From an uncultured Dehalococcoidia bacterium (GTDB lineage: Bacteria > Chloroflexota > Dehalococcoidia > Lucifugimonadales > UBA3495), in assembly GCA_958296445.1 (NCBI GenBank), contig OY282565.1:1565570-1629569 (forward strand): 64,000 bases of DNA. The letters run 5' to 3'. Every line of letters begins with the position of its first letter. The first letter of the stretch is position 1. The notes under the pieces were generated by a model, which worked only from the letters and a program-made list of their open reading frames with translations, was not told the origin of the DNA and made no database searches. This document shows positions 18,984-38,790 of this stretch, one piece after another. Both the position numbers and the translations under genes were made by a program.

Positions 18984-19550
18984 CTATGCTTGCTGAAAAA
19001 TCTGGGATAGGGGCAGATCCAGCCCCGGGAGGGTTGTTGACTGGATAGTTTCGCCGGGGCCGTGGATTCGTAGCCGTTGCCATTCTCCGTTTTGCAGTTG
19101 CAAGACCTCTACGGTTTGGGCTTGGGGGGAGACTAGCCAGCATTCTAGGACGCCGATTTGGGCGTAGTCGGACAGCTTGCCCTTGATTTCGGCCCGGGTG
19201 TTGCCGGGGGAAAGGATTTCTACTACTAGGTCGGGGGCGCCGTGAATCCGGTCGTCTTGGACGATGTTGGCTCTTTGGTTGCTTATGAACAGCAGGTCGG
19301 GCTGGCGGGTGCGCAGGGGGTCGCGTTGTATGATGATGTCTAGGGGGGCGTACAGTACTTCGCCCAACCCGCGCTCGCTGACGAATTGGTGGACAGGCAG
19401 GTAGATTTTGGCGGAGGTTCGCTGATGGTAGATGTTGGGCGCGGCGGACATAATCACTTCGCCGTCCACGATGTCGAAGCGCAACATTGTTTCAGGCTCG
19501 TTGAGGTATTCTTGATAGGTGAGTTTGGTTCCGGTTTGCAGGGTGGTCAT
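18984..19550 (-). CDS. Uma2-family (DUF820) putative endonuclease, solitary copy
   Basis: 'RQPDLLFI...APDLVVEILSPGNTRAEIKGKLSDYAQIGVLECWLV' is the typical Uma2 PD-(D/E)xK-like core. Confidence 0.8.
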   Translation of the reverse strand: MTTLQTGTKLTYQEYLNEPETMLRFDIVDGEVIMSAAPNIYHQRTSAKIYLPVHQFVSERGLGEVLYAPLDIIIQRDPLRTRQPDLLFISNQRANIVQDDRIHGAPDLVVEILSPGNTRAEIKGKLSDYAQIGVLECWLVSPQAQTVEVLQLQNGEWQRLRIHGPGETIQSTTLPGLDLPLSQIFQQA

Positions 19551-26451: not shown

Positions 26452-27459
26452 TTACCTTTCCGAGAAGTACCGAGCCAGCTCGTCCCGGGGGAAAAGGGGT
26501 AAGGGTACTTCCTCGCCGGCGCGGGTAAACAGTACACACCCCTCGTCGGCGGGCAGCATCTGGCCGATTTCCCAGGCGTTGATACCCGAGCGTTCCAAGG
26601 CGTGTAAAAGGCTGGGTGTATATTGGGCGTGTAGCGTTACCAGCATTGCGCCGGAGGCCAGCAGGCCCAAGGGGTGTAGTCCGAGGGCGGTACACACTTC
26701 GGCGGTTTCGGGGAGTACGGGTACACTATCCTCTTCCACGGCCAGTCCCAGGCCGGAGGCTGCGGCCAGCTCGTGCAGTGCGGTAATCAGGCCGCCCTCG
26801 GTGATGTCGTGCAACGAATGTACCGGCATTTGCGTACTGATTTGCGCGTCGTGTAGTACACTTATTCCGGGGGTATCGAGCATTGTTGCACATTTGGCAA
26901 TTACACTTTCGCTAATACCGGCCTGGCGCAGTTCCCCGGCGCAGTCCCGGGCCAGCAGGGCAGTACCCTCGATTGCCAGCCCTTTGGTGATAACGATGCT
27001 GTCGCCTTCCTGGGCGCCGCCAGTGGTAATGAGCCGGTCGGGCGCCACTTCGCCGAGCATTGTTCCCATTACGATGGGGCGCTGGATGCCGTGGGTGACC
27101 TCGCTGTGGCCGCCGATGAGGGTTACGCCGAGGGCTTGGCAGCTTTCCATAACATCGTTGAACAGCTTTGCGGCGGCGTCGAAATCGAAGGTTTCCGGCA
27201 CGAGGAGGGTTGCTAGGAACCAGCGGGGGGTTGCGCCGGTGCAGGCGACGTCGTTGGCGCAGACTTGGACGGCGTACCAGCCGGCGCGGTCGGCGGCGAA
27301 GGTGACCGGGTCGCTCTTGGCAACCAGCAGGCGGTCGCCGAAGTCTAGGGCGGCGGCGTCCTCGCCTACCAGCGGGCCTAGGATTACGCGCGGGTCGCTG
27401 GAGTGGGCGGAGCGCAGCAGACGCTCCAGCAGTTCCGGGGGAAATTTGCCGACATTCAT
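26452..27459 (-). CDS. AIR synthase-related protein (PurM/HypE/ThiL superfamily)
   Basis: 'GEDAAALDFGDRLLVAKSDPVTF...YAVQVCANDVACTGATPRWFL...GVTLIGGHSEVT'. Confidence 0.65.
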   Translation of the reverse strand: MNVGKFPPELLERLLRSAHSSDPRVILGPLVGEDAAALDFGDRLLVAKSDPVTFAADRAGWYAVQVCANDVACTGATPRWFLATLLVPETFDFDAAAKLFNDVMESCQALGVTLIGGHSEVTHGIQRPIVMGTMLGEVAPDRLITTGGAQEGDSIVITKGLAIEGTALLARDCAGELRQAGISESVIAKCATMLDTPGISVLHDAQISTQMPVHSLHDITEGGLITALHELAAASGLGLAVEEDSVPVLPETAEVCTALGLHPLGLLASGAMLVTLHAQYTPSLLHALERSGINAWEIGQMLPADEGCVLFTRAGEEVPLPLFPRDELARYFSER

Positions 27460-27723
27460 CCGTTTCTCCCGTTATATCCCGTTTTGGGCCGGTTGGCCGG
27501 TTATATCCCGTTTTGGCCTGTTTTGGCCCGCTGGCAAATGGCGAACCTATTATGTCAAAAGGCCCCAAAACGGCCTGTAAGACAACATAACGTATCTTGT
27601 GCGAACCAACCAGTGTGGCGAATTATGGGGGGCGGACAACGAAATAGGGGGCATATTGGAGGGGTTTGTTATGTATACCGAGGACGGGCCGGGGGCGTCG
27701 GGGCGGTTGGGGGATGCCGGGGG

Positions 27724-28977
27724 TTACTGCCAGCCGTTGGCGTATTCCCCGGTCATCAGCAGGGGGCCGTCGAGGTTGACGAGCTGGTTTTCGATTTCGC
27801 GGAGCAGGCCGTCGAGGTTCCAGCCTTTTTGCGCCGAGACCAGGACGCCGGGCGCCGCGTCTTGGTTCCAAGGGGCGGCGATGCCGGACGGGGACGGGGG
27901 CGGGGCGGCCTGGGTGTTGCCGGGGGTTGCGGCCGGGTTGTCGGCGGGGGGCAGCAAGTCCATTTTATTTATGACAAGCAGGCGGGGGCGGCGGCCTAGG
28001 CCCAGCTCGTCTAGGGTTTGCTCGACTACTTCGGTCTGCTCCGGGGCTTTGGGGTGGGAGACGTCAATGACGTGGAGGAGGACGTCGGCGCGGTCGAGTT
28101 CGTCGAGGGTGGCGCGGAAGGCGGCGATGACGTTGGGGGAGAGCTTTTGGATGAAGCCGACGGTGTCGCTGAGGAGGAGGGGGGCGCCGGAGGGCAGCCG
28201 GACGCGGCGGGTGACGGGGTCGAGGGTGGAAAAGAGCTGGTCGGCGGCTAGGGAGGGGGCGCCATTGGCGGCGGCGGAGCCGGGGGGAATCAAAGCGTTG
28301 AACAGGGTGCTTTTGCCGGCGTTGGTGTAGCCGACTAGGGTGGCCATGGGGATGGCCGATTTCCGGCGGCGGTCCATATGCAGGGTGCGGCGGCGGCGCA
28401 CGCCGTCCAGTTCGGAGCGTATTTTCTGGATGCGGCGGCGAACTAGGCGGCGGTCGGTTTCGATCTGGGTTTCGCCGGGGCCGCGGGTGCCGATGCCGCC
28501 GCCCAAGCGTTCTAGGTGGGACCACTGGCCGGCGAGCCGGGGGAGCAGGTATTCGTGCTGGGCCAGCTCCACTTGGAGCTTGCCTTCGTAACTGGAGGCG
28601 TGGCGTCCGAATACGTCAAGAATCAGGGCGGTGCGGTCTATGACTTTTACGCCCTTTTGCTCGCCCGGCCTAGGGGAAAGGGTTGAGGCTAGGGCGGCTT
28701 CTAGGTTCCGTTGCTGGGTGGGGGTTAGTTCGTCGTCAAAGATTACGACGCCGGCGGATTCTTGTCTTATTATGTCGCGCAGTTCGTCGAGCTTGCCTTT
28801 GCCGACGTAGGTGGGGGTGAGGCGGTCGGTCCGCTGGCTGATGACGCCGGCCACCTCGGCCCCGGCCGACTCGGTGAGGTGGCGCAGTTCGCCTAGGGTG
28901 TCGTCCAGGGTCCAAAGCTGGTCGCGGCCCTTTAATTCGACGGCTACTAGGATGGCGCGTTCCCGCTCGGGGGACAC
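27724..28977 (-). CDS. hflX: GTPase HflX
   Basis: HflX N-terminal domain 'RAILVAV...EELRHL', a '[19 protein letters not shown]' segment, G1 '[16 protein letters not shown]' and G4 'NKMD'. Confidence 0.85.
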
Positions 28978-29070
28978 GTCAACAAGCCGCGCGGCCTTGG
29001 CCGCCCGTTTGGGGGTCTCCGGGTTATGTATGGTAGCCGGGGCTTGGCGCGGTTTGGACTTGGCGATGGG

Positions 29071-30249
29071 CTAACCTCCTTGGGGGGCGGGAATCGTCCA
29101 CGCTTCGATGCGCTGGCAGCCCTTTTCCACTTGTTCGTCGGGGGTGGTCAGGGACAAACGGATGTAGCCCTCTCCGTAGCGGCCATAGCTGGAGCCGGGG
29201 GTGACTACTACGTCTAGGTCTTCGAGCAGGCGTTGGGCGAACTCGGCGGAGGTGAAACCGGGGGGGACTTTGGCCCAGATATACAGGCTGGCCCGGGGGA
29301 CGTCAACTTCCATTCCGGCGTTGCGGACGGCCTGCACTACTCGGTCGCGGCGGCGCTGGTAGATTTCCACGTTGTCGGTGACGCAGTCTTGGGGGCCGGT
29401 CAAGGCTTCGATCGCCATTTCCTGGACTGCCTGGGGGACGCCGGAGTCTAGGTTGGCTTTGATTTGGAACAGGGCGCGAATCATATCGGCGTTGCCGACG
29501 GCCATGCCGATGCGCCAGCCGGTCATATTGTAGGTTTTGGACAGGGAATGGAACTCGATGCCGATGTCTCTGGCGCCGTCCACTTGCAGGTAGCTGGCGG
29601 CCTGATAGCCGTGGTAGCCGACTTCGCTGTAGGCGGCGTCGTGGAGCAGGGCGATGTCGTTTTCGCGGCAGAAGGCGGCGGCGGCGGCGAGGTCTTCGGC
29701 GCTGGCGACGGCGCTGGTGGGGTTGTTGGGGTAGTTGAGCCACATCACTTTGGCGGCGCGGGCGATGTCGGTGGGGATGGCGTCCAGCTCGGGCAGCCAT
29801 CCGTTGCTTTCGTAGAGGGGCATTATGTAACTTTCGGCTCCGGCGAACATCGTGCCGACGCCGTAGACGGGATAGGCCGGGTCGGGAACTAGGGCGATGT
29901 CGCCGGGGTCGAGGAAGCAGAAGGCGGCGTGGCCGATGCCTTCCTTGGCGCCAATCAGGGGGAGAACTTCGGTGTCCGGGTCGAGCTTTACGCCGAAGCG
30001 GATGTCGTACCAGTGGGCGATGGCGCGGCGCATTTCGGGCAGGCCGTCGGTTTCGGGGTAGCGGTGGTTGGGGGGATGCTGGGAGGCGGTCAACAGCCGG
30101 TCTATGATGGGCTGCGGCGTGGGGATGTCGGGGTCGCCGATGCCGAAGGTGACGACGTCGGCGCCGGCGGCCCGCTTGGCCGCGATGATGCGGGAGATTT
30201 CGACGAAGGGATAGGGTGCCAGTTTGCCCAAGCGGTCGGAGAATTTCAT
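29071..30249 (-). CDS. dapL: LL-diaminopimelate aminotransferase (DapL-type class I aminotransferase)
   Basis: 'MKFSDRLGKLAPYPFVEISRIIAAKRAAGADVVTFGIGDPDIPTP' and 'SLSKTYNMTGWRIG' (PLP lysine). Confidence 0.75.
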   Translation of the reverse strand: MKFSDRLGKLAPYPFVEISRIIAAKRAAGADVVTFGIGDPDIPTPQPIIDRLLTASQHPPNHRYPETDGLPEMRRAIAHWYDIRFGVKLDPDTEVLPLIGAKEGIGHAAFCFLDPGDIALVPDPAYPVYGVGTMFAGAESYIMPLYESNGWLPELDAIPTDIARAAKVMWLNYPNNPTSAVASAEDLAAAAAFCRENDIALLHDAAYSEVGYHGYQAASYLQVDGARDIGIEFHSLSKTYNMTGWRIGMAVGNADMIRALFQIKANLDSGVPQAVQEMAIEALTGPQDCVTDNVEIYQRRRDRVVQAVRNAGMEVDVPRASLYIWAKVPPGFTSAEFAQRLLEDLDVVVTPGSSYGRYGEGYIRLSLTTPDEQVEKGCQRIEAWTIPAPQGG

Positions 30250-30337
30250 CTTGGCGGCCTCTGTTGCTTAATTATTGTGGGATTGCGGGGTTTGGATTAA
30301 ACCGGCGATGGGTTGGATGACACGGTTGGCGCTTTCG

Positions 30338-30925
30338 CTAGGCCAGTAGCGGGCCGAAAATGTTGGCTATGGATAGGGCGAAGCCGGGGAGGATTTGGGA
30401 TTGGAGGGTTTGGCCCATTGTGTAGGTGGCTATGGTGGTTGCGGATTGGGGGGTTAGGCGCAGGACTTCGATTGTGCGGGCGGGGAAGTTTACCAGCCAG
30501 CATTCCGGGACGCCTATGCTGCGGTAGTCGGATAGCCGTTGCGTTATGTCGCGGCGGGTGTTGCTGGGGGAAAGAACCTCGACTACTAGCAGCGGGGGGC
30601 GTTCTAGGAAGGGGCGGCCTACTAGGTCGGACGGGCGGGTTATGCCGGTCAATTCGGCGTTCACTACCAGAATATCCGGCTGGCGGACTCGTAAGGGTTC
30701 CCGTTGAATTAGCACGTCGCACGGGGCCGTTAGCACTATGCCGAGATTCCTTTCCCGCACAAATGGCGAGAGCTGCGTCGCAATCTCAAATTCAAGCCAG
30801 GGGTGTTCACCCATTGGGCCGGGGGGCATTAGCAGGACTCCGTCCACAACCTCGCAGCGTTGTTTGGTTTCGGGTAGGGCTTGCCATTGGTCGAAGGTTA
30901 ATTTTTTGGTGCTTGTGGTGGTCAT
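30338..30925 (-). CDS. Uma2-family (DUF820) putative endonuclease, array copy 1 (most downstream in transcription)
   Basis: 588 nt. Starts MTTTSTKKLTFDQWQALPETKQRCEVVDG. Core 'RQPDILVV...LLVVEVLSPSNTRRDITQRLSDYRSIGVPECWLV'. ATG at 30925. Confidence 0.8.
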   Translation of the reverse strand: MTTTSTKKLTFDQWQALPETKQRCEVVDGVLLMPPGPMGEHPWLEFEIATQLSPFVRERNLGIVLTAPCDVLIQREPLRVRQPDILVVNAELTGITRPSDLVGRPFLERPPLLVVEVLSPSNTRRDITQRLSDYRSIGVPECWLVNFPARTIEVLRLTPQSATTIATYTMGQTLQSQILPGFALSIANIFGPLLA

Positions 30926-30942
30926 TGGGTTGTTTCCTGCTG

Positions 30943-31530
30943 CTATTTTAGGAGTGGGCCGAAAATGTTGGCTATGGGTAGGGCGAAGCCGGGCAGGATT
31001 TGGGATTGGAGGGTGTCGGCTATGCCGTAGGTGGCGATGGTGGTTGCGGTGTCGGGGGTTAGGCGCAGGACTTCGATTGTTCGGGCGGGGAAATCGGCCA
31101 GCCAGCACTCGGGGACGCCTATGCTGCGGTAGTCGGCCAGGCGTTGCGTTATGTCGCGGCGGGTGTTGCTGGGGGACAGGACTTCTACCACCAGCAGCGG
31201 GGGGCGTTCTAGGAAGGGGCGGCCTACTAGGTCGGACGGGCGGGTTATGCCGGTTAATTCGGCGTTCACTACCAGAATATCGGGTTGGCGGACTCGTAAG
31301 GGTTCCCGTTGAATCAGGACGTCGTAGGGGGCCGTTAGCACTATGCCGAGATCCCTTTCCCTCACAAATGGCGAGAGATGCCTCACGATTTCTAGGCCAA
31401 GCCATTGGTGTTCACCCATTGGGCTGGGGGGCATTAGCAGGACTCCGTCCACAACCTCGCAGCGTTGGTTGGTTTCGGGTAGGGCTTGCCATTGGTCGAA
31501 GGTTAATTTTTTGGTGCTGATGGTGGTCAT
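30943..31530 (-). CDS. Uma2-family putative endonuclease, array copy 2
   Basis: 588 nt, same frame architecture. ATG at 31530. A 17-nt spacer with AGGAAA lies upstream. Confidence 0.8.
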   Translation of the reverse strand: MTTISTKKLTFDQWQALPETNQRCEVVDGVLLMPPSPMGEHQWLGLEIVRHLSPFVRERDLGIVLTAPYDVLIQREPLRVRQPDILVVNAELTGITRPSDLVGRPFLERPPLLVVEVLSPSNTRRDITQRLADYRSIGVPECWLADFPARTIEVLRLTPDTATTIATYGIADTLQSQILPGFALPIANIFGPLLK

Positions 31531-31547
31531 TGGGTTGTTTCCTGCGG

Positions 31548-32135
31548 CTATTTTAGGAGTGGGCCGAAAATGTTGGCGATGGGTAGGGCGAAGCCGGGGA
31601 GGATTTGGGATTGGAGGGTGTCGGCTATGCCGTAGGTGGCGATGGTGGTTGCGGATTGGGGGGTTAGGCGCAGGACTTCGATTGTGCGGGCGGGGAAGTT
31701 TACTAGCCAGCACTCGGGGACGCCTATGCTGCGGTAGTCGGCCAGCTTTTCCTGAATCTGGCGGCGGGTGTTGCTGGGGGACAGTATTTCCACTACCAGG
31801 TCGGGGGGCGATTCGATGCGCTGTATGTCGGCTAGGTCGGATTCACGCCTGACGCCAGCGCGGGCGGCGCTTAGGTAGAAAATGTCCGGTTGCCTCACCC
31901 GCAGGGGTTCTTTGCTAATCAGCACATCGCACGGGGCCATTATCGCTAGGCCCAAGCCATTTTCTTCTACGAAAAGCGATACGGGCCTGATTATCCGAAG
32001 TCCAAGTATCTGGTGTTCGGGTGTTGGGCTGGGGGGCATTAGCAGGACTCCGTCCACAACCTCGCAGCGTTGCTTGGTTTCGGGTAGGGCTTGCCATTGG
32101 TCGAAGGTTAATTTTTTGGTGCTGATGGTGGTCAT
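31548..32135 (-). CDS. Uma2-family putative endonuclease, array copy 3
   Basis: 588 nt. Carries the central variant 'FYLSAARAGVRRESDLADIQRIESPPDLVVEILSPSN'. Confidence 0.8.
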   Translation of the reverse strand: MTTISTKKLTFDQWQALPETKQRCEVVDGVLLMPPSPTPEHQILGLRIIRPVSLFVEENGLGLAIMAPCDVLISKEPLRVRQPDIFYLSAARAGVRRESDLADIQRIESPPDLVVEILSPSNTRRQIQEKLADYRSIGVPECWLVNFPARTIEVLRLTPQSATTIATYGIADTLQSQILPGFALPIANIFGPLLK

Positions 32136-32152
32136 TGGGTTGTTTCCTGCGG

Positions 32153-32740
32153 CTATTTTAGGAGCGGGCCGAAAATGTTGGCTATGGGTAGGGCGAAGCC
32201 GGGGAGGATTTGGGATTGGAGGGTTTGGCCCATTGTGTAGGTGGCGATGGTGGTTGCGGCTTCGGGGGTTAGGCGCAGGACTTCGATTGTTCGGGTGGGG
32301 AAATCGGCCAGCCAGCACTCGGGGACGCCTATGCTGCGGTAGTCGGCTAGGCGTTGCGTTATGTCGCGGCGGGTGTTGCTGGGGGAAAGGACTTCTACCA
32401 CCAGCAGCGGGGGGCGTTCTAGGAAGGGGCGGCCTACTAGGTCGGATGGGCGGGTTATGCCGGTCAATTCGGCGTTCACTACCAAGACATCGGGTTGGCG
32501 GACTCGTAAGGGTTCCCGTTGAATTAGCACGTCGTAGGGCGCGGATAGGGCGATGCCTAGCCCGTTGTCCCTTACGAATGGTCTGAGACTTAGCAGAATT
32601 TCATCGGCTATCCAGGGGTGTTCACCCATTGGGCCGGGGGGCATTAGCAGGACTCCGTCCACAACCTCGCAGCGTTGTTTGGTTTCGGGTAGGGCTTGCC
32701 ATTGGTCGAAGGTTAATTTTTTGGTGCTTGTGGTGGTCAT
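32153..32740 (-). CDS. Uma2-family putative endonuclease, array copy 4
   Basis: 588 nt. Has a unique segment 'GPMGEHPWIADEILLSLRPFVRDNGLGIALSAPY'. Confidence 0.8.
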   Translation of the reverse strand: MTTTSTKKLTFDQWQALPETKQRCEVVDGVLLMPPGPMGEHPWIADEILLSLRPFVRDNGLGIALSAPYDVLIQREPLRVRQPDVLVVNAELTGITRPSDLVGRPFLERPPLLVVEVLSPSNTRRDITQRLADYRSIGVPECWLADFPTRTIEVLRLTPEAATTIATYTMGQTLQSQILPGFALPIANIFGPLLK

Positions 32741-32757
32741 TGGGTTGTTTCCTGCCG

Positions 32758-33345
32758 CTATTTTAGGAGCGGGCCGAAAATGTTGGCTATGGGTAGGGCG
32801 AAACCGGGGAGGATTTGGGATTGGAGGGTGTCGGCTATGCCGTAGGTGGCGATGGTGGTTGCGGCTTCGGGGGTTAGGCGCAGGATTTCGATTGTCCGGG
32901 TGGGGAAGTTTACCAGCCAGCATTCTAATACGCCGATGCTGCGGTAGTCGGCCAGCTTTTCCTGAATTTGGCGGCGGGTGTTGCTGGGGGAAAGTATTTC
33001 CACCACCAAGTCGGGGGGCGATTCGATGCGCTGTATGTCGGCTAGGTCGGATTCACGCCTGACGCCAGCGCGGGCGGCGCTTAGGTAGAAAATATCCGGT
33101 TGCCTTACCCGCAGGGGTTCTTTGCTAATCAGGACATCGCACGGGGCCATTATCGCTAGGCCCAAGCCATTTTCTTCTACGAAAAGCGATACGGGCCTGA
33201 TTATCCGAAGTCCAAGTATCTGGTGTTCGGGTGTTGGGCTGGGGGGCATTAGCAGGACTCCGTCCACAACCTCGCAGCGTTGTTTGGTTTCGGGTAGGGC
33301 TTGCCATTGGTCGAAGGTCAATTTTTTGGTGCTTGTGGTGGTCAT
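32758..33345 (-). CDS. Uma2-family putative endonuclease, array copy 5
   Basis: 588 nt. Its central part is nearly identical to copy 3. Confidence 0.8.
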   Translation of the reverse strand: MTTTSTKKLTFDQWQALPETKQRCEVVDGVLLMPPSPTPEHQILGLRIIRPVSLFVEENGLGLAIMAPCDVLISKEPLRVRQPDIFYLSAARAGVRRESDLADIQRIESPPDLVVEILSPSNTRRQIQEKLADYRSIGVLECWLVNFPTRTIEILRLTPEAATTIATYGIADTLQSQILPGFALPIANIFGPLLK

Positions 33346-33362
33346 TGGGTTGTTTCCTGCGG

Positions 33363-33950
33363 CTATTTTAGGAGCGGGCCGAAAATGTTGGCTATGGGTA
33401 GGGCGAAGCCGGGGAGGATTTGGGAGCTTAGGGTGTCGGCTATGCCGTAGGTGGCGATGGTGGTTGCGGATTCGGGGGTTAGGCGCAGGACTTCGATTGT
33501 CCGGGCGGGGAAGTTTACTAGCCAGCATTCGGGGACGCCGATGCTGCGGTAGTCGGCCAGGCGTTGCGTTATGTCGCGGCGGGTGTTGCTGGGGGAAAGG
33601 ACTTCGACTACTAGCAGCGGGGGGCGTTCTAGGAAGGGGCGGCCTACTAGGTCGGACGGGCGGGTTATGCCGGTCAATTCGGCGTTCACTACTAGGACAT
33701 CCGGTTGGCGAACTCGTAAGGGTTCCCGTTGAATCAGCACGTCGTAGGGGGCCGTTAGCACTATGCCGAGATCCCTTTCCCGCACAAATGGCGAGAGATG
33801 CCTCACGATTTCTAGGCCAAGCCAGGGGTGTTCACCCATTGGGCTGGGGGGCATTAGCAGGACTCCGTCCACAACCTCGCAGCGTTGTTTGGTTTCGGGT
33901 AGGGCTTGCCATTGGTCGAAGGTTAATTTTTTGGTGCTGATGGTAGTCAT
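33363..33950 (-). CDS. Uma2-family putative endonuclease, array copy 6
   Basis: 588 nt. Its central part is close to copy 2. Confidence 0.8.
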   Translation of the reverse strand: MTTISTKKLTFDQWQALPETKQRCEVVDGVLLMPPSPMGEHPWLGLEIVRHLSPFVRERDLGIVLTAPYDVLIQREPLRVRQPDVLVVNAELTGITRPSDLVGRPFLERPPLLVVEVLSPSNTRRDITQRLADYRSIGVPECWLVNFPARTIEVLRLTPESATTIATYGIADTLSSQILPGFALPIANIFGPLLK

Positions 33951-33967
33951 TGGGTTGTTTCCTGCTG

Positions 33968-34555
33968 CTATTTTAGGAGCGGGCCGAAAATGTTGGCGAT
34001 GGGTAGGGCGAAGCCGGGGAGGATTTGGGATTGGAGGGTTTGGCCCATTGTGTAGGTGGCGATGGTGGTTGCGGATTCGGGGGTTAGGTGCAGGACTTCG
34101 ATTGTGCGGGCGGGGAAGTTTACCAGCCAGCATTCTAATACGCCTATGCTGCGGTAGTCGGCTAGTTTTTCCGTTATGTCGCGGCGGGTGTTGCTGGGGG
34201 ACAGTATTTCCACCACTAGGTCGAGGGGCGATTGGATAAGCTGTATGCCAGCTAGGTCGGACTCGCGTCTTACGCCAGCGCGGGCGGCGCTTAGGTAGAA
34301 AATATCCGGTTGCCTTACCCGCAGGGGTTCCTTGCTAATCAGTACATCGCACGGGGCCATTATCGCTACGCCTAGCTCTCTTTCCCGCACAAACGGGGAG
34401 AGCTGCATCGCAATGTCAAGGCGAAGTATCTGATACTCAAGGGTTGGGTTGGGCGGCATTAGCAGGATTCCGTCCACAACCTCGCAGCGCTGCTTGGTTT
34501 CCGGCAACGCTTGCCATTCGTCGAATGTCAGCCTTTTGGCGCTGGCAGGGTTCAT
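33968..34555 (-). CDS. Uma2-family putative endonuclease, array copy 7 (first in transcription; most divergent N-terminus)
   Basis: 588 nt. Starts MNPASAKRLTFDEWQALPETKQRCEVVDGILLMPP. Its ATG (34553-34555) overlaps the dapF stop as TGATG. Confidence 0.8.
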   Translation of the reverse strand: MNPASAKRLTFDEWQALPETKQRCEVVDGILLMPPNPTLEYQILRLDIAMQLSPFVRERELGVAIMAPCDVLISKEPLRVRQPDIFYLSAARAGVRRESDLAGIQLIQSPLDLVVEILSPSNTRRDITEKLADYRSIGVLECWLVNFPARTIEVLHLTPESATTIATYTMGQTLQSQILPGFALPIANIFGPLLK

Positions 34556-35406
34556 CAGACAGGCCAGTCTCCGGTGAATACTTCGGTGGCGGGGCCTTCC
34601 ATTATTACTTCGCCTGCGCCGTCCCAGGTTATGGTTAGGGGGCCGCCGGGTAGGGTTATGTTTACTGTGTCGGGGCAGTGGTTGGATAGGCGGGCGGCTA
34701 CGGCTATGGCGCAGGCGCCGGTGCCGCAGGCTAGGGTTTCGCCGCTGCCGCGTTCCCAGACCCGGGCGGTTAGCTTGCCGGGGGCGTCTAGGTTGACAAT
34801 CTCAAAGTTGACGCGGCGGGGAAAGATGGGGTGATGCTCTACTTTGGGGCCGATGGTGTGCAGGGGGAAGTCGGCTACGGGCTGGCTGATGAAGGTTACG
34901 GCGTGGGGGTTGCCCATCGAAACGAAGCTTAGGGGGAGGTCGTAGCCGTCTATCGTAAAGGGGTGTTCCAGCACCGGGGGCGGGGGTTCGCCGTCTAGGG
35001 CTACCGGAATTTGGGCGGGTTCAAGGATGGGGGCGCCCATTGCCACCCGGGCGCCGGTGATGCGGGAGCCGCCGTTGGCGTAGGTGGGGGTGACGGTGCG
35101 GATGCCGGCCAGGGTTTCGACGGTGAGGCTGCCGCTAGGGGGGGCGGCGATGTCGCGCTCGATGGCGTATTTGGCGAAACAGCGGATGCCGTTGCCGCAC
35201 ATTTCGCCTTGGGAGCCGTCGGCGTTGAACATTATCATCTTTAGGTCGGCTATGCCGGAGTCGGCAATGAGAATCAGGCCGTCGCTGCCGACGCCGAAAT
35301 GCCGGTCGCTCATGCGGCGGGACAGTTCGGGCCAGTTTTGTTCTTGGGAGCGGGCGTCTATATATATGTAGTCGTTGCCCGCGCCTTGCATTTTGGTGAA
35401 TTGCAT
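34555..35406 (-). CDS. dapF: Diaminopimelate epimerase
   Basis: 'MQFTKMQGAGNDYIYID...FGVGSDGLILI...FNADGSQGEMCGNGIRC...ERGSGETLACGTGACA'. Both catalytic Cys contexts are present. Start was moved to ATG 35406. Confidence 0.9.
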   Translation of the reverse strand: MQFTKMQGAGNDYIYIDARSQEQNWPELSRRMSDRHFGVGSDGLILIADSGIADLKMIMFNADGSQGEMCGNGIRCFAKYAIERDIAAPPSGSLTVETLAGIRTVTPTYANGGSRITGARVAMGAPILEPAQIPVALDGEPPPPVLEHPFTIDGYDLPLSFVSMGNPHAVTFISQPVADFPLHTIGPKVEHHPIFPRRVNFEIVNLDAPGKLTARVWERGSGETLACGTGACAIAVAARLSNHCPDTVNITLPGGPLTITWDGAGEVIMEGPATEVFTGDWPV

Positions 35407-35961
35407 TGGGGTGGGCTCCTTTTGTGGCGTTGGCCTTTTTGGCCCCCTGAGCGGAGCGGATGGTCTCACTGCTCAGGGGTGGGATTCTTCGCTTTGCTCA
35501 GAATGACAGGGTTTTGCTCAGTGGCGGGGTTTGCATTTTGGTGAATTGCATTGGGGTGGACTCCTTTTGGGGCGTTGGCCTTTTTGCTGCCCTGTCCCCT
35601 GTGTCGCCCTGAGCGGAGCGGAGGGTCTCACTGGCCAAGGTGAGATTCTTCGCTTTGCTCAGAATGACAGGGTTTGCTCGGTGGCGGGGTTTGCTTGGGA
35701 TGATGGGGTTTGCTCGTTGCCCGCGCCTTGCATTTCAGAATGGCGGGGTTTGCTAGGTGGCGGGGTTTGCTTGGGATGATGGGGTTTGCTCGTTGCCCGC
35801 GCCTTGCATTTCAGAATGGCGGGGTTTGCTCGGTGGCGGGGTTTGCTTGGGATGACGGGGTTTGCTCGTTGCCCGCGCCTTGCATTTTGGTGAATTGCAT
35901 TGGGGTGGGCTCCTTTTGTTGGCCTGTGCGGGTTGGTGGTGGTGGGTTGGGGGTTGTTGGG
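35407..35961. repeat. Composite repeat region made of duplicated dapF 5'-end/leader segments interleaved with family-1 repeat cores
   Basis: 'ttgcattttggtgaattgcattggggtgg(g/a)ctcctttt' occurs at 35384-35425 (genuine), 35531-35575 and 35879-35920. The fragment 'gttgcccgcgccttgcatttcagaatggcgggg' occurs at 35715 and 35795. Confidence 0.85.
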
Positions 35962-36942
35962 TCATTGTATCACAGGGGGTTGGGGGGCTGGCGGTTGGAG
36001 GAATTGGGCGACGGCTTGGGCGGCTTGGTGGGGGAGGGCGGGGTTGGTGGCGCAGAGCCAGTGGATGCGGGGGTCGGTGGGCTTGAACCAGGTGTATTGG
36101 CGGCGGGCTAGGCGGTGGGTTTTTAGCTTGGTTTGCCGTATCGCTTGTTCTAAGGGCAGTGCGGCGGTTAGGTGTTGGCCCAGTTCGCGGTAGCCGGGGC
36201 TGTCTAGGGGGCCTTGGCCGGGGGGGAATCCGGCGGCTAGTAGTTGCTCTACTTCTTGGAGGAATCCGTCTTGCATCATTTGGTCAACGCGCCGGTCTAT
36301 GCGCTGGTAGAGGGCTTCGCGGGGCATCGTTAGCCCTAGGATTAGGGTTTGGGTTGGCGGCGTTGACGGGGTGGGGGGCGGCAGTTGGGAGGGGGGCTGG
36401 CCGGTAGCGTGGTAGATTTCTAGGGCGCGGATGACGCGGCGGACGTTGCGGGGGTCTAGGGCGGCGGCGCGGGTTGGGTCTATGGCGGCCAGTTGGCGGT
36501 GCAGGGCGTCGGGGCCTAGGCGGGTCGCTTCGGCTTCCAGTCGGGCCCGCAGTTCGGGGTTGGGGGGCGCGGGGGGGACGGGCTGGCCGTTGACTAGGCC
36601 CCAGACGTATTGCCCGGTGCCGCCGCAGACGATGGGCAGCTTTCCTCGCTGTCGGATGTTGCGCAGGGATTCGGCGGCGTATATAAGGAATAGGCCCAAG
36701 CCGAAATTGTCGGACGGGTCTAGGATGTCTACTAGGTGATGGGGGGCTTGGCGGCGTTCCGCGCCGGTGGGTTTGGCGGAGCCGATGGTCATGCCGCGGT
36801 AGACTTGGCGGCTGTCGGCGTTGATTATTTCGCCGTCGAACCGGCGGGCTAGGGCGACGGCGAGGGCCGTCTTGCCGACGGCGGTGGGGCCGACGATGCA
36901 GACTAGGGGGCCGGTTTGCGGTGGGGGGTGGTTGTCGGTCAT
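35962..36942 (-). CDS. miaA: tRNA dimethylallyltransferase
   Basis: 'CIVGPTAVGKTALAVALARRFDGEIINADSRQVYRGMTIGSAKP' is the typical MiaA N-terminus. Confidence 0.9.
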   Translation of the reverse strand: MTDNHPPPQTGPLVCIVGPTAVGKTALAVALARRFDGEIINADSRQVYRGMTIGSAKPTGAERRQAPHHLVDILDPSDNFGLGLFLIYAAESLRNIRQRGKLPIVCGGTGQYVWGLVNGQPVPPAPPNPELRARLEAEATRLGPDALHRQLAAIDPTRAAALDPRNVRRVIRALEIYHATGQPPSQLPPPTPSTPPTQTLILGLTMPREALYQRIDRRVDQMMQDGFLQEVEQLLAAGFPPGQGPLDSPGYRELGQHLTAALPLEQAIRQTKLKTHRLARRQYTWFKPTDPRIHWLCATNPALPHQAAQAVAQFLQPPAPQPPVIQ

Positions 36943-37149
36943 AGATGGCCTTTTGTCATTTTGCTCAGAGTGACAAAGGGGGCGCTCAGGGTGACAAAGG
37001 GGTTGCTCAGGGTAGTAAAGGGTTGCTCAGGCACTTTCTGTCATTCTGAGCAAAGAGAAGAATCTTGGCTTGAGCGGTGAGGCCCTTCGCTTTGCTCAGG
37101 GTGACAAAGGGTTGCTTAGGGTGACAAAGGGTTGATTTGGCGGCGGCGG

Positions 37150-38790
37150 CTAGTCGGGTTGGCCGAGTTTTGGTTGGCGGCCTTGGGGGGGGCGGGCGCG
37201 TTGGGCGGGCTGGTAGTCGGCGGGGCGGGGGGGCAGGTCGAAGTTTTGGCCGGACAGCATTTCGCCGATGGTGCGTAGCTGGATTTTGGGGAAATCGCGG
37301 GCCCATAGGTCGGAGTGGTAGAAACCGGCGCCGACGGCTTCTTGGCGCATATCCCGGGTGGGCGGTTCTAGGGATATGAACAGTCCCAGGGCGGCCTGCT
37401 CCCGTTCTACTACGCCTTTGAGGTCGCGGATTTGGGGGGATGATACCCGCCCGCCCTTGACTTGGATGACGGCTTTTTGGGGGGTGCGGCGCGGGCCGTC
37501 TAGGAAGTAGAGCATACCGTCAACGCCGCGGTCGGGGCCGCGCTTTTGTTCGGATTGCGGCTGCGCCTGTAGCAGGGATACGGCCCAGAACTGGAACTGG
37601 TAGGGGTCTTGTTCCCAGAGGGCGCGGGCGCTGCCTTCGTCCTGCGGTTCGCCTACTACGGCGTAATCGCGGCCGGCTTCTAGGGCGAAGGCGGTTTTCA
37701 GGCGGTTTTTCATCAGGGCTACGGCTAGGTGGGTTATGTCTATTCCCAGCCACTGGCGGCCGAGCTTGTGGGCGGCGGCTACCGCCGTGCCGCAGCCGCA
37801 GAACGGGTCAAGCACTACGTCGCCCTCGTTGGACGAGGCGCGGATGATGCGCTCTAGCAGGGCTTCGGGCTTTTGGGTGGGGTAGCCTAGTCGCTCTTTG
37901 GCTTGGGATGCGACTGCCCCTATGTCTGTCCATATATCTTGTAAAGGGATTCCCGGCATTTCGTCAAGGTATCTTTTATATGCCGGGACTGCTCCTGGCC
38001 GCGTCTGAACGATGCGGCCGGCGTCAATCAATTCCTGCATTCTTTCTTTGGAATAGCGCCAATAACGGGTGACTCCCATAACTTCATAGCTGGGGTTTCC
38101 TTTGGCTGCGCCGCCGGGCCCGGTTAGGTTATCCAATCTATAGCGGCGTCCGGTGTCGGGTTCCTCGTAGCGATAAGACTGGTCTACGTACTCTTGGTCG
38201 TATTGAGTATAGGTTGGGTTCCAAGTCCAGTTGGAAGTCTTGGTATAAAACAAAATCGTATCGTGAACCCGCCCGTGCTGCCGCCTGCCCTGCCGGGTGT
38301 CGCTGTGGGCGCTGGTGCGCTTCCAAGTTATATCGGTTCGGAAATTCTGTTGCCCAAACACGGTGTCCATAAGCAGTTTCAGGTAATGGCCGGCGGTGGG
38401 GTCGCAGTGGAGGTAGATGCTGCCGGTGGGTTTGAGGGCGCGGCGCAGTTCGACTAGGCGGGGGGCCATCATTGTGAGGTAGGCCATCATAGCGTTGCGG
38501 CCGATGAACTGGCGGAAGGCGGTAATCATATCCTTGACTGCGGGTGGGACGTTTGGGTTGGCGATTATGTCTTGCTCGAAGGTGTGTTCGGTTTCTTGGG
38601 TCCATTCCCAGGTGTCGGTGAAGGCGCGGATTTGGGCTGGGGAATCCTCGCCGGTTTTTTCGCGGAAGAGGACGTTGTAGGATGCGTTGGAGTTGAAGGG
38701 TGGGTCGAGGTAGACGAGGTCTACGGAGGCGTCGGGGACGCGCTCGCGGAGGACGGGTAGGTTGTCGCCGTAGAAGAGGGCGTTGGGCAT
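37150..38790 (-). CDS. Beta-class N4/N6 DNA methyltransferase fused to a C-terminal Mrr-like (PD-(D/E)xK) restriction-endonuclease domain
   Basis: '[16 protein letters not shown]' and '[26 protein letters not shown]'. C-terminus '[12 protein letters not shown]...[23 protein letters not shown]...GLFISL'. Start was moved to ATG 38790. N-terminal half is paralogous to 11707..13224. Confidence 0.8.

Follow-up and report, generated by a model that had tools for sequence, protein, structure and literature searches.

Seven tandem Uma2 genes, the first overlapping the dapF stop codon, in a variable dapF-dapL slot of an uncultured Dehalococcoidia bacterium

The junction between dapF and dapL was analyzed in a window of 64,000 nucleotides (nt) from an uncultured Dehalococcoidia bacterium (GenBank assembly GCA_958296445.1, contig OY282565.1, positions 1,565,570 to 1,629,569). 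On the minus strand this junction holds a tandem array of Uma2 (DUF820, COG4636) genes, and the gene order is miaA, dapF, seven intact Uma2 genes, dapL, and hflX. The likely explanation, as judged from the sequence, is that the junction is a variable slot in a string of housekeeping genes, in which an old Uma2 gene coupled to dapF was amplified in place and is read together with dapF and dapL. The order of dapF, seven Uma2 genes, an 88-nt gap, and dapL had been proposed in an original prediction made from the DNA letters; its coordinates are exact, and the TGATG that it reported at the dapF stop codon and the first Uma2 ATG is confirmed. The features of the locus are listed below, with the Uma2 copies numbered from dapF.

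35962-36942, minus strand: miaA, tRNA isopentenyltransferase, the upstream end of the conserved string (PF01715, 260 bits)
35407-35961, minus strand: miaA-dapF spacer of 555 nt, filled with repeats
34555-35406, minus strand: dapF, diaminopimelate epimerase (PF01678; TIGR00652)
34553-34557, minus strand: TGATG, overlap of the dapF stop codon with the start codon of Uma2 copy 1
33968-34555, minus strand: Uma2 copy 1, type I, K130 (PF05685, 96 bits)
33951-33967, minus strand: first of six 17-nt spacers, c[agc][gc]caggaaacaaccca
33363-33950, minus strand: Uma2 copy 2, type II, R130 (PF05685, 109 bits)
32758-33345, minus strand: Uma2 copy 3, type I (PF05685, 105 bits)
32153-32740, minus strand: Uma2 copy 4, type II (close paralogue of the scanned copies)
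31548-32135, minus strand: Uma2 copy 5, type I (close paralogue of the scanned copies)
30943-31530, minus strand: Uma2 copy 6, type II (close paralogue of the scanned copies)
30338-30925, minus strand: Uma2 copy 7, type II, the last of the array (PF05685, 114 bits)
33346-33362, 32741-32757, 32136-32152, 31531-31547, and 30926-30942, minus strand: the other five 17-nt spacers
30250-30337, minus strand: 88-nt gap between copy 7 and dapL
29071-30249, minus strand: dapL, LL-diaminopimelate aminotransferase (NF006756)
27724-28977, minus strand: hflX GTPase, co-directional, 93 nt 3' of dapL (PF16360, PF13167, PF01926)

The array spans 30338-34555, and each of its open reading frames (ORFs) encodes 195 amino acids (aa). 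The start-to-start period is exactly 605 nt, composed of 588 nt of coding sequence and a 17-nt spacer, and every spacer carries an AGGAAA Shine-Dalgarno-like motif located 7 nt 5' of the next ATG. The dapF stop codon (34557-34555) and the ATG of copy 1 (34555-34553) have one base in common, and the minus strand reads ...cct gtc TGA TG aac... at this point. An assembly artefact was considered as the source of the array and rejected, because the nucleotide differences between copies amount to 4-25%, every copy is intact, and the period is exact.

For comparison, dapF and dapL were located in 40 related genomes and all of the intervening intervals were retrieved. A dapF match was obtained in 15 other families of the order, each represented by one genome. 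In 10 of these 15 families dapL directly follows dapF, at a distance of -1 to 138 nt; the distance is 50 nt in an extra public genome (L073), and in G034 dapL itself overlaps dapF as TGATG. Because dapF and dapL are such tight neighbors in these families, the sequences indicate that the pair is ancestral and was adjacent before any insertion, which agrees with the original prediction that the two genes had been neighbors before the array arose. The junction is occupied or broken in the other five families. A single Uma2 gene, coupled to dapF as ATGA, lies in the slot of G028, from another family, and is just 46% identical. The two genes are separated by 1076 nt in G029, with a different ORF coupled to dapF as TAATG, and by 679 nt in G037, with nothing recognizable in the interval; they are 6.2 kb apart in G036 and not adjacent in G032. 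The slot ORF of G029 (L061) encodes 147-159 aa and has a weak, sub-threshold match to Mrr_cat, a restriction endonuclease domain (E = 0.006); it may be a different nuclease-like gene in the same slot after dapF. On the other side of dapF, 33 of the 34 related loci have a co-directional miaA located 5' of it; where the interval between the two was computed, it measures 18-100 nt in most relatives, versus 555 nt here. The dapF-dapL pair is thus part of a longer conserved string, miaA-dapF-slot-dapL-hflX.

The contents of the slot vary within the genus. The congeners examined comprise 26 other species, 24 from the genome search together with L071 and L074, and 20 of the 26 carry from one to five intact Uma2 genes between dapF and dapL. 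The seven copies of the present genome are the maximum in this comparison. The slot contents of the congeners are as follows.

One intact Uma2 gene: 12 species
Two intact Uma2 genes: six species
Three intact Uma2 genes: G010, with 16-nt spacers
Five intact Uma2 genes: G009, with 17-nt spacers as in the seven-copy array
Uma2 with an in-frame internal deletion, residues 1-90 joined to 159-195: G012
Uma2 5' relic only: G021, L071, and L074
No Uma2: G023 and G024

A hidden Markov model built from 42 locus copies detected no Uma2 remnant in the slots of G021 (listed above with a 5' relic), G023, G024, G037, G029, and G036. The same slot also contains a hicB-hicA pair in 12 congeners (L033, L036-L043, L046, L071, and L074), which is absent from the present genome. 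The slot hicB encodes 87 aa (PF15919, 27.3 bits) and hicA encodes 69 aa (PF07927, 62 bits); the pair is located between Uma2 and dapL with overlapping stop and start codons. Four more congeners (G022, G015, G021, and G011) retain hicBA only as decayed pieces. Because a second kind of small accessory gene has left intact pairs or pieces in these species, the dapF-dapL slot is a collecting point for such genes.

The stop/start overlap is conserved across the genus. A lone TGATG is common in bacteria and could be due to chance. An overlap of 1 or 4 nt with the dapF stop codon was observed in all 24 congeners that have a Uma2 copy, a deleted copy, or a relic (20 with intact Uma2 and four with a relic or deleted copy), and this conservation argues for more than chance. 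The overlap takes the form of 1 nt as TGATG (TAATG once) or of 4 nt as ATGA (GTGA once). In L071 and L074 (6846-6914) a Uma2 stub of 22 codons starts at the dapF TGATG, the TGA of the stub overlaps the hicB ATG, and hicB and hicA overlap as ATGA. In these two species the chain of overlapping frames dapF-stub-hicB-hicA outlasts the deletion of the nuclease gene. A duplicate of 868 nt, 91% identical and composed of the last 285 nt of dapF plus Uma2, is found in G011 (L032, 1545-2450). Here a chimeric ORF, in which the first ten hicB codons are fused to the final 95 of dapF, overlaps the second Uma2 gene as TGATG. Since the chain of overlaps is kept through deletions and duplications, termination-reinitiation appears to be in use, and Uma2 copy 1 is probably coupled translationally to dapF, as had been suggested from the single overlap. 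Among the 24 Uma2 clusters of the present genome whose first copy matches the Pfam profile over its full length, the set covered by this survey, the dapF array is the only one that overlaps an upstream stop codon; the remaining 35 clusters are of a longer, partially matching class. Several other clusters of the full-length class lie 11-63 nt behind an ORF on the same strand.

The relationships among the copies point to one lineage that has stayed at this site. The array copies are 70-97% identical to one another, with the closest pairs formed by copies 3 and 5 (97%) and copies 2 and 6 (96%). Their identity is 63-77% to most dapF-linked copies from congeners, 50-53% to a divergent first-copy lineage (G002, G005, G010, and G016), and at most 44% to the other Uma2 proteins of the same genome. 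Because the identities within the locus exceed those to the rest of the genome, the dapF-linked genes are one orthologous lineage tied to the site. In the protein tree, copies 1, 3, and 5 form a species-specific type I clade (support 100/96), and copies 2, 4, 6, and 7 form a species-specific type II clade (support 97/99). The five copies of G009 also fall into two clades of their own, and sister species share sister copies (e.g., G005/G016 and G001/G013). The synonymous divergence (dS) within the array is 0.14-0.60, below the dapL dS of 0.65 to over 1.3 between the present species and its congeners, and this places the amplification, or its homogenization by gene conversion, within the present lineage. 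The nearest-neighbor copy shifts along the Uma2 gene, which indicates gene conversion. One route of array growth is illustrated by the duplicate in G011, as read from its sequence. The array does interrupt the dapF-dapL pair, as originally predicted; the notion that it was spliced in as a block does not hold, since an old single Uma2 gene was amplified in place.

The Uma2 proteins were assigned by profile and structure searches. PF05685 was matched at 96-114 bits versus a cut-off of 27, over profile positions 2-171 of 172, by the four copies scanned (1, 2, 3, and 7), and all seven copies were recovered by the genome search with this profile. The nearest solved structure to copy 2 is 9y1l (E = 3.5e-29 over residues 1-190), followed by 6okh (4.8e-16) and 3ot2 (2.6e-07); all three are uncharacterized proteins with a restriction-endonuclease fold. 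The acidic residues of the PD-(D/E)xK type are present as E in the first strand, PD, and E-x-x-S. E25, D84, and E116 are invariant in all seven array copies and in all 42 dapF-linked copies, save for one conservative E25D. The putative relocated basic position, 130, a column assigned by alignment with 9y1l and not from a structure, is K in copies 1, 3, and 5 and R in copies 2, 4, 6, and 7 and in most congeners. The ratio of nonsynonymous to synonymous divergence (dN/dS) is 0.11-0.45 for all 21 array pairs, which argues that all seven copies are kept by purifying selection. Full-length matches to the PADLOC PDC-S03 models, which represent a candidate phage-defence system only, were obtained for the three array copies scanned (E = 1e-27 to 1e-29), and two of these three also matched the unannotated phage family phrog_16228. 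The most probable role of the proteins is that of active, Mg-dependent nucleases, either selfish or defensive. Literature searches found no functional study or biochemical characterization of the Uma2 family and nothing relevant on PDC-S03 or 9Y1L.

Both flanking genes are single-copy. The dapF product scores 265.1 bits against the equivalog TIGR00652, above the curated cut-off of 114.65, and is the one match in the 4.0-Mb genome; GGAG is located 9 nt 5' of its ATG. The dapL product scores 575.6 bits against NF006756, the LL-diaminopimelate aminotransferase subfamily (cut-off 507), and 562.9 bits against the equivalog TIGR03540, just below the cut-off of 593.25. The next-best aminotransferase of the genome is 30% identical to it. 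In two congeners (G013 C42:35311-36148 and G015 C2:698467-699305) dapF is seemingly present as two overlapping fragments, in one case with an in-frame TGA. This splitting is either a sequencing indel of the long-read assemblies or a real frameshift in a single-copy gene.

Signals that could separate the transcription of the array from that of its neighbors were searched for. No minus-strand terminator-like site was found by a terminator scan of 27500-37200, which covers miaA to hflX. The 88-nt gap contains no stable hairpin and folds no better than shuffles (z = +0.26), and an Rfam scan of 27000-38000 at E ≤ 1 gave no match to a lysine riboswitch or any other known RNA. A promoter scan found no promoter-like site on the minus strand of the miaA-dapF spacer, and its only minus-strand matches are six copies of one weak site that coincides with the final codons of copies 1-6. 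In the sequence 5' of dapL, conservation among congeners is limited to the last ~15 nt, acagaggccgccaag, with the dapL Shine-Dalgarno sequence (acagagg). The terminator, hairpin, Rfam, and promoter scans fit, without proving, read-through from dapF or miaA to dapL. A dapF promoter, if any, must be located in the 555-nt miaA-dapF spacer or upstream of miaA. This spacer contains the dapF start and leader three times (35386-35449, 35531-35594, and 35880-35943), a 76-nt unit in three tandem copies (35659-35887), and dispersed palindromic elements of the type GAGCGGAGCGGA..GGTCTCACTG.

The following series of events would account for these observations. The comparisons with congeners show that, before the genus diversified, one Uma2 gene with the PD-(D/E)xK fold settled immediately 3' of dapF, such that its start codon overlaps the stop codon of dapF, and that it has since been passed on vertically at this site. 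In the present genome it was amplified in place to seven intact copies, likely by unequal recombination between repeats followed by gene conversion, to give an array of two alternating sequence types, I and II. As for expression, the array would have neither a promoter nor a terminator of its own and would be read within the dapF-dapL transcript. Ribosomes that end at the dapF UGA would reinitiate on the copy 1 AUG that overlaps it, each of copies 2-7 would use the AGGAAA of the preceding spacer, and dapL would use its own conserved AGAGG. Because dapL is single-copy and located downstream of the array, a polar disruption of the array would be expected to leave the cell short of LL-diaminopimelate aminotransferase. 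Deletions would then be tolerated only if recombination removed the copies cleanly, which fits the stepwise series of 0-7 copies and the in-frame relics of the congeners.

Several observations weigh against this account. The two-gene species tree is poorly resolved, with 13 of 24 forks open, and the number and order of gains and losses are uncertain as a result; concerted evolution could also mimic recent duplication. The GC content at third codon positions (GC3) is 0.66-0.69 for the Uma2 genes versus 0.76 for dapF and 0.83 for dapL, so the Uma2 genes appear not to be fully assimilated in composition. The weak sigma-70-like site at the 3' ends of copies 1-6, T[AC]GCCA-18-TAAAAT with 9 of 12 matches, could drive internal transcription, and the rules of the promoter scan do not cover those of the host phylum. 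The 88-nt gap holds a poor candidate promoter, TTAATC-18-AATAAT, which could provide dapL with a promoter of its own.

If such sites are functional, the array would be transcribed on its own from a weak promoter at the 3' end of each repeat, and the TGATG would be a by-product of compact packing. The six sites, one per repeat versus 2.6 expected in shuffles, are placed such that each transcript would start inside the 17-nt spacer, and the lower GC3 of the Uma2 genes relative to their flanking genes is in accord with this possibility. The six sites are, however, copies of one sequence and hence a single observation. Their TAAAAT falls in the LLK-stop codons and is not kept in the G009 array, which ends in ...ctggggtag. 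The overlap with the dapF stop codon, kept in 24 of 24 congeners and rebuilt in the stub-hicB chain, is hard to explain without coupling, and independent transcription is thus considered unlikely. We give still less credence to the junction as a homing or insertion hotspot that Uma2 and other nuclease genes entered repeatedly as mobile selfish elements. The ATGA-coupled Uma2 gene of G028, from another family and just 46% identical, would be expected from repeated entry, as would the different TAATG-coupled ORF of G029, whose Mrr_cat match is weak and below the cut-off (E = 0.006). That hicBA landed in the slot as well, and that COG4636 genes have been proposed as selfish elements (PMC551604), points in the same direction. 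Within the genus, however, identity between the locus copies of different species is 50% or more, against 44% or less to other Uma2 proteins of the same genome, and sister copies are shared by sister species (G005/G016 and G001/G013). There was no sign of a transposase, a repeat boundary, or a target duplication, and the empty slots of G023, G024, and G037 are without a Uma2 remnant.

A function of the Uma2 proteins at this site in diaminopimelate, lysine, or cell-wall metabolism would also explain the linkage to dapF, which is conserved across the genus and is found in one other family as well. Such a function is highly improbable given the 124 Uma2 matches in 59 clusters at unrelated sites of the same genome, the empty slots in two congeners as well as in 10 of 15 other families, and the loss or truncation of the copies in a further four congeners, which keep dapF and dapL intact. 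The fold and the conserved residues are, in addition, those of a nuclease. A further idea, of fairly low probability, is that the dapF-dapL junction might serve as a protected harbor, where selfish nuclease or toxin-antitoxin genes without signals of their own are wedged into an essential operon and chained by stop/start overlaps. If this is true, silencing or polar disruption would be lethal, and the residents would be removed only by clean recombinational deletion. The 22-codon stub of L071 and L074 and the rebuilt TGATG of G011 would then mark selection on the translational chain itself. Amplification in place of an old, dapF-coupled Uma2 gene within a variable slot is nevertheless the reading that we prefer.

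The genome search returned 124 Uma2 matches in 59 clusters (31 of them multi-copy) over 4.0 Mb, and the dapF array is the largest cluster. About 70 of the 124 matches belong to the longer class, with open frames of ~250-350 aa in which Pfam matches only profile positions ~66-155. Genes of this class occur in arrays of up to five with a spacing of 810-980 nt; examples in the present genome (G000) are C1:100724-104478, 2903189-2907077, and 3449658-3453745. A solitary Uma2 gene at 19008-19514 of the window (G000 C1:1584577-1585083) is, at 42% identity, the closest paralogue that the array has beyond the slot, and is located 18 nt behind a 577-codon ORF on the same strand.

The locus resembles systems known from other sources. 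The array proteins share with the Uma2/DUF820/COG4636 family a full-length Pfam match and the E...PD...E-x-x-S core with a basic residue putatively moved downstream, and the genome shares with earlier cases a massive proliferation of the family and cassettes of paralogues without an antitoxin partner. The three array proteins scanned match the PADLOC PDC-S03 models over their full length, but the locus lies in a housekeeping operon and not in a defence island. In T4-like phages, free-standing homing endonuclease genes are lodged between conserved genes. The similarity to the present case is that a small, apparently promoter-less nuclease gene sits between conserved neighbors and is present or absent among relatives. 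The differences are that inheritance looks vertical here, that the nuclease family is a different one, and that there is no sign of mobility or of cleavage of empty sites.

Cassettes of paralogous Uma2 genes have already been described (Makarova et al. 2009, PMC2701414; PMC551604). Feder and Bujnicki (2005) proposed the COG4636 genes as selfish elements and noted the relocation of the catalytic Lys downstream of the E-x-x-S motif; the longest run that they reported was four consecutive genes, and insertion was called virtually random (PMC551604). In contrast, seven consecutive copies are present here, and the dapF lineage has been at one site through the life of the genus with 0-7 copies, always overlapping the dapF stop codon. 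In Synechocystis, hoxEFUYH contains the DUF820 gene sll1222 along with a toxin-antitoxin pair, and these are read within a longer transcription unit (Kopfmann et al. 2016, PMC4963859). In the Lyngbya hox paper a DUF820 ORF downstream of hoxW is merely listed, without co-transcription data for it (PMC2674450). The combination of Uma2/DUF820 with a type II toxin-antitoxin pair in a metabolic operon is common to the Synechocystis case and the present genus, with hicBA in 12 congeners. The operon and the phylum are different, a tandem array replaces the single gene, and the stop/start overlap is conserved; the transcription unit is known in Synechocystis and is predicted for the dapF-dapL locus. 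Given these published cassettes and the DUF820 gene of the hox operon, the original prediction overstated the matter in calling an accessory array on a housekeeping transcript unusual.

Though clear, the locus is a fairly ordinary example of a housekeeping operon in which accessory genes have lodged, and no new kind of system is involved. What is new is how large the array is, how long one Uma2 lineage has resided at the site behind dapF, and how strictly the overlap is conserved over a range of 0 to 7 copies. Uma2/DUF820 ranks among the large protein families without a known function. The dapF-dapL slot provides a natural series at one orthologous site in about 27 species, with 0, 1, 2, 3, 5, or 7 copies together with relics, in each case joined by a start/stop overlap to a single-copy gene of an essential pathway. 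This series makes it testable whether coupling to a housekeeping gene is a route to the expression and retention of promoter-less genes, and what selects the extra copies.

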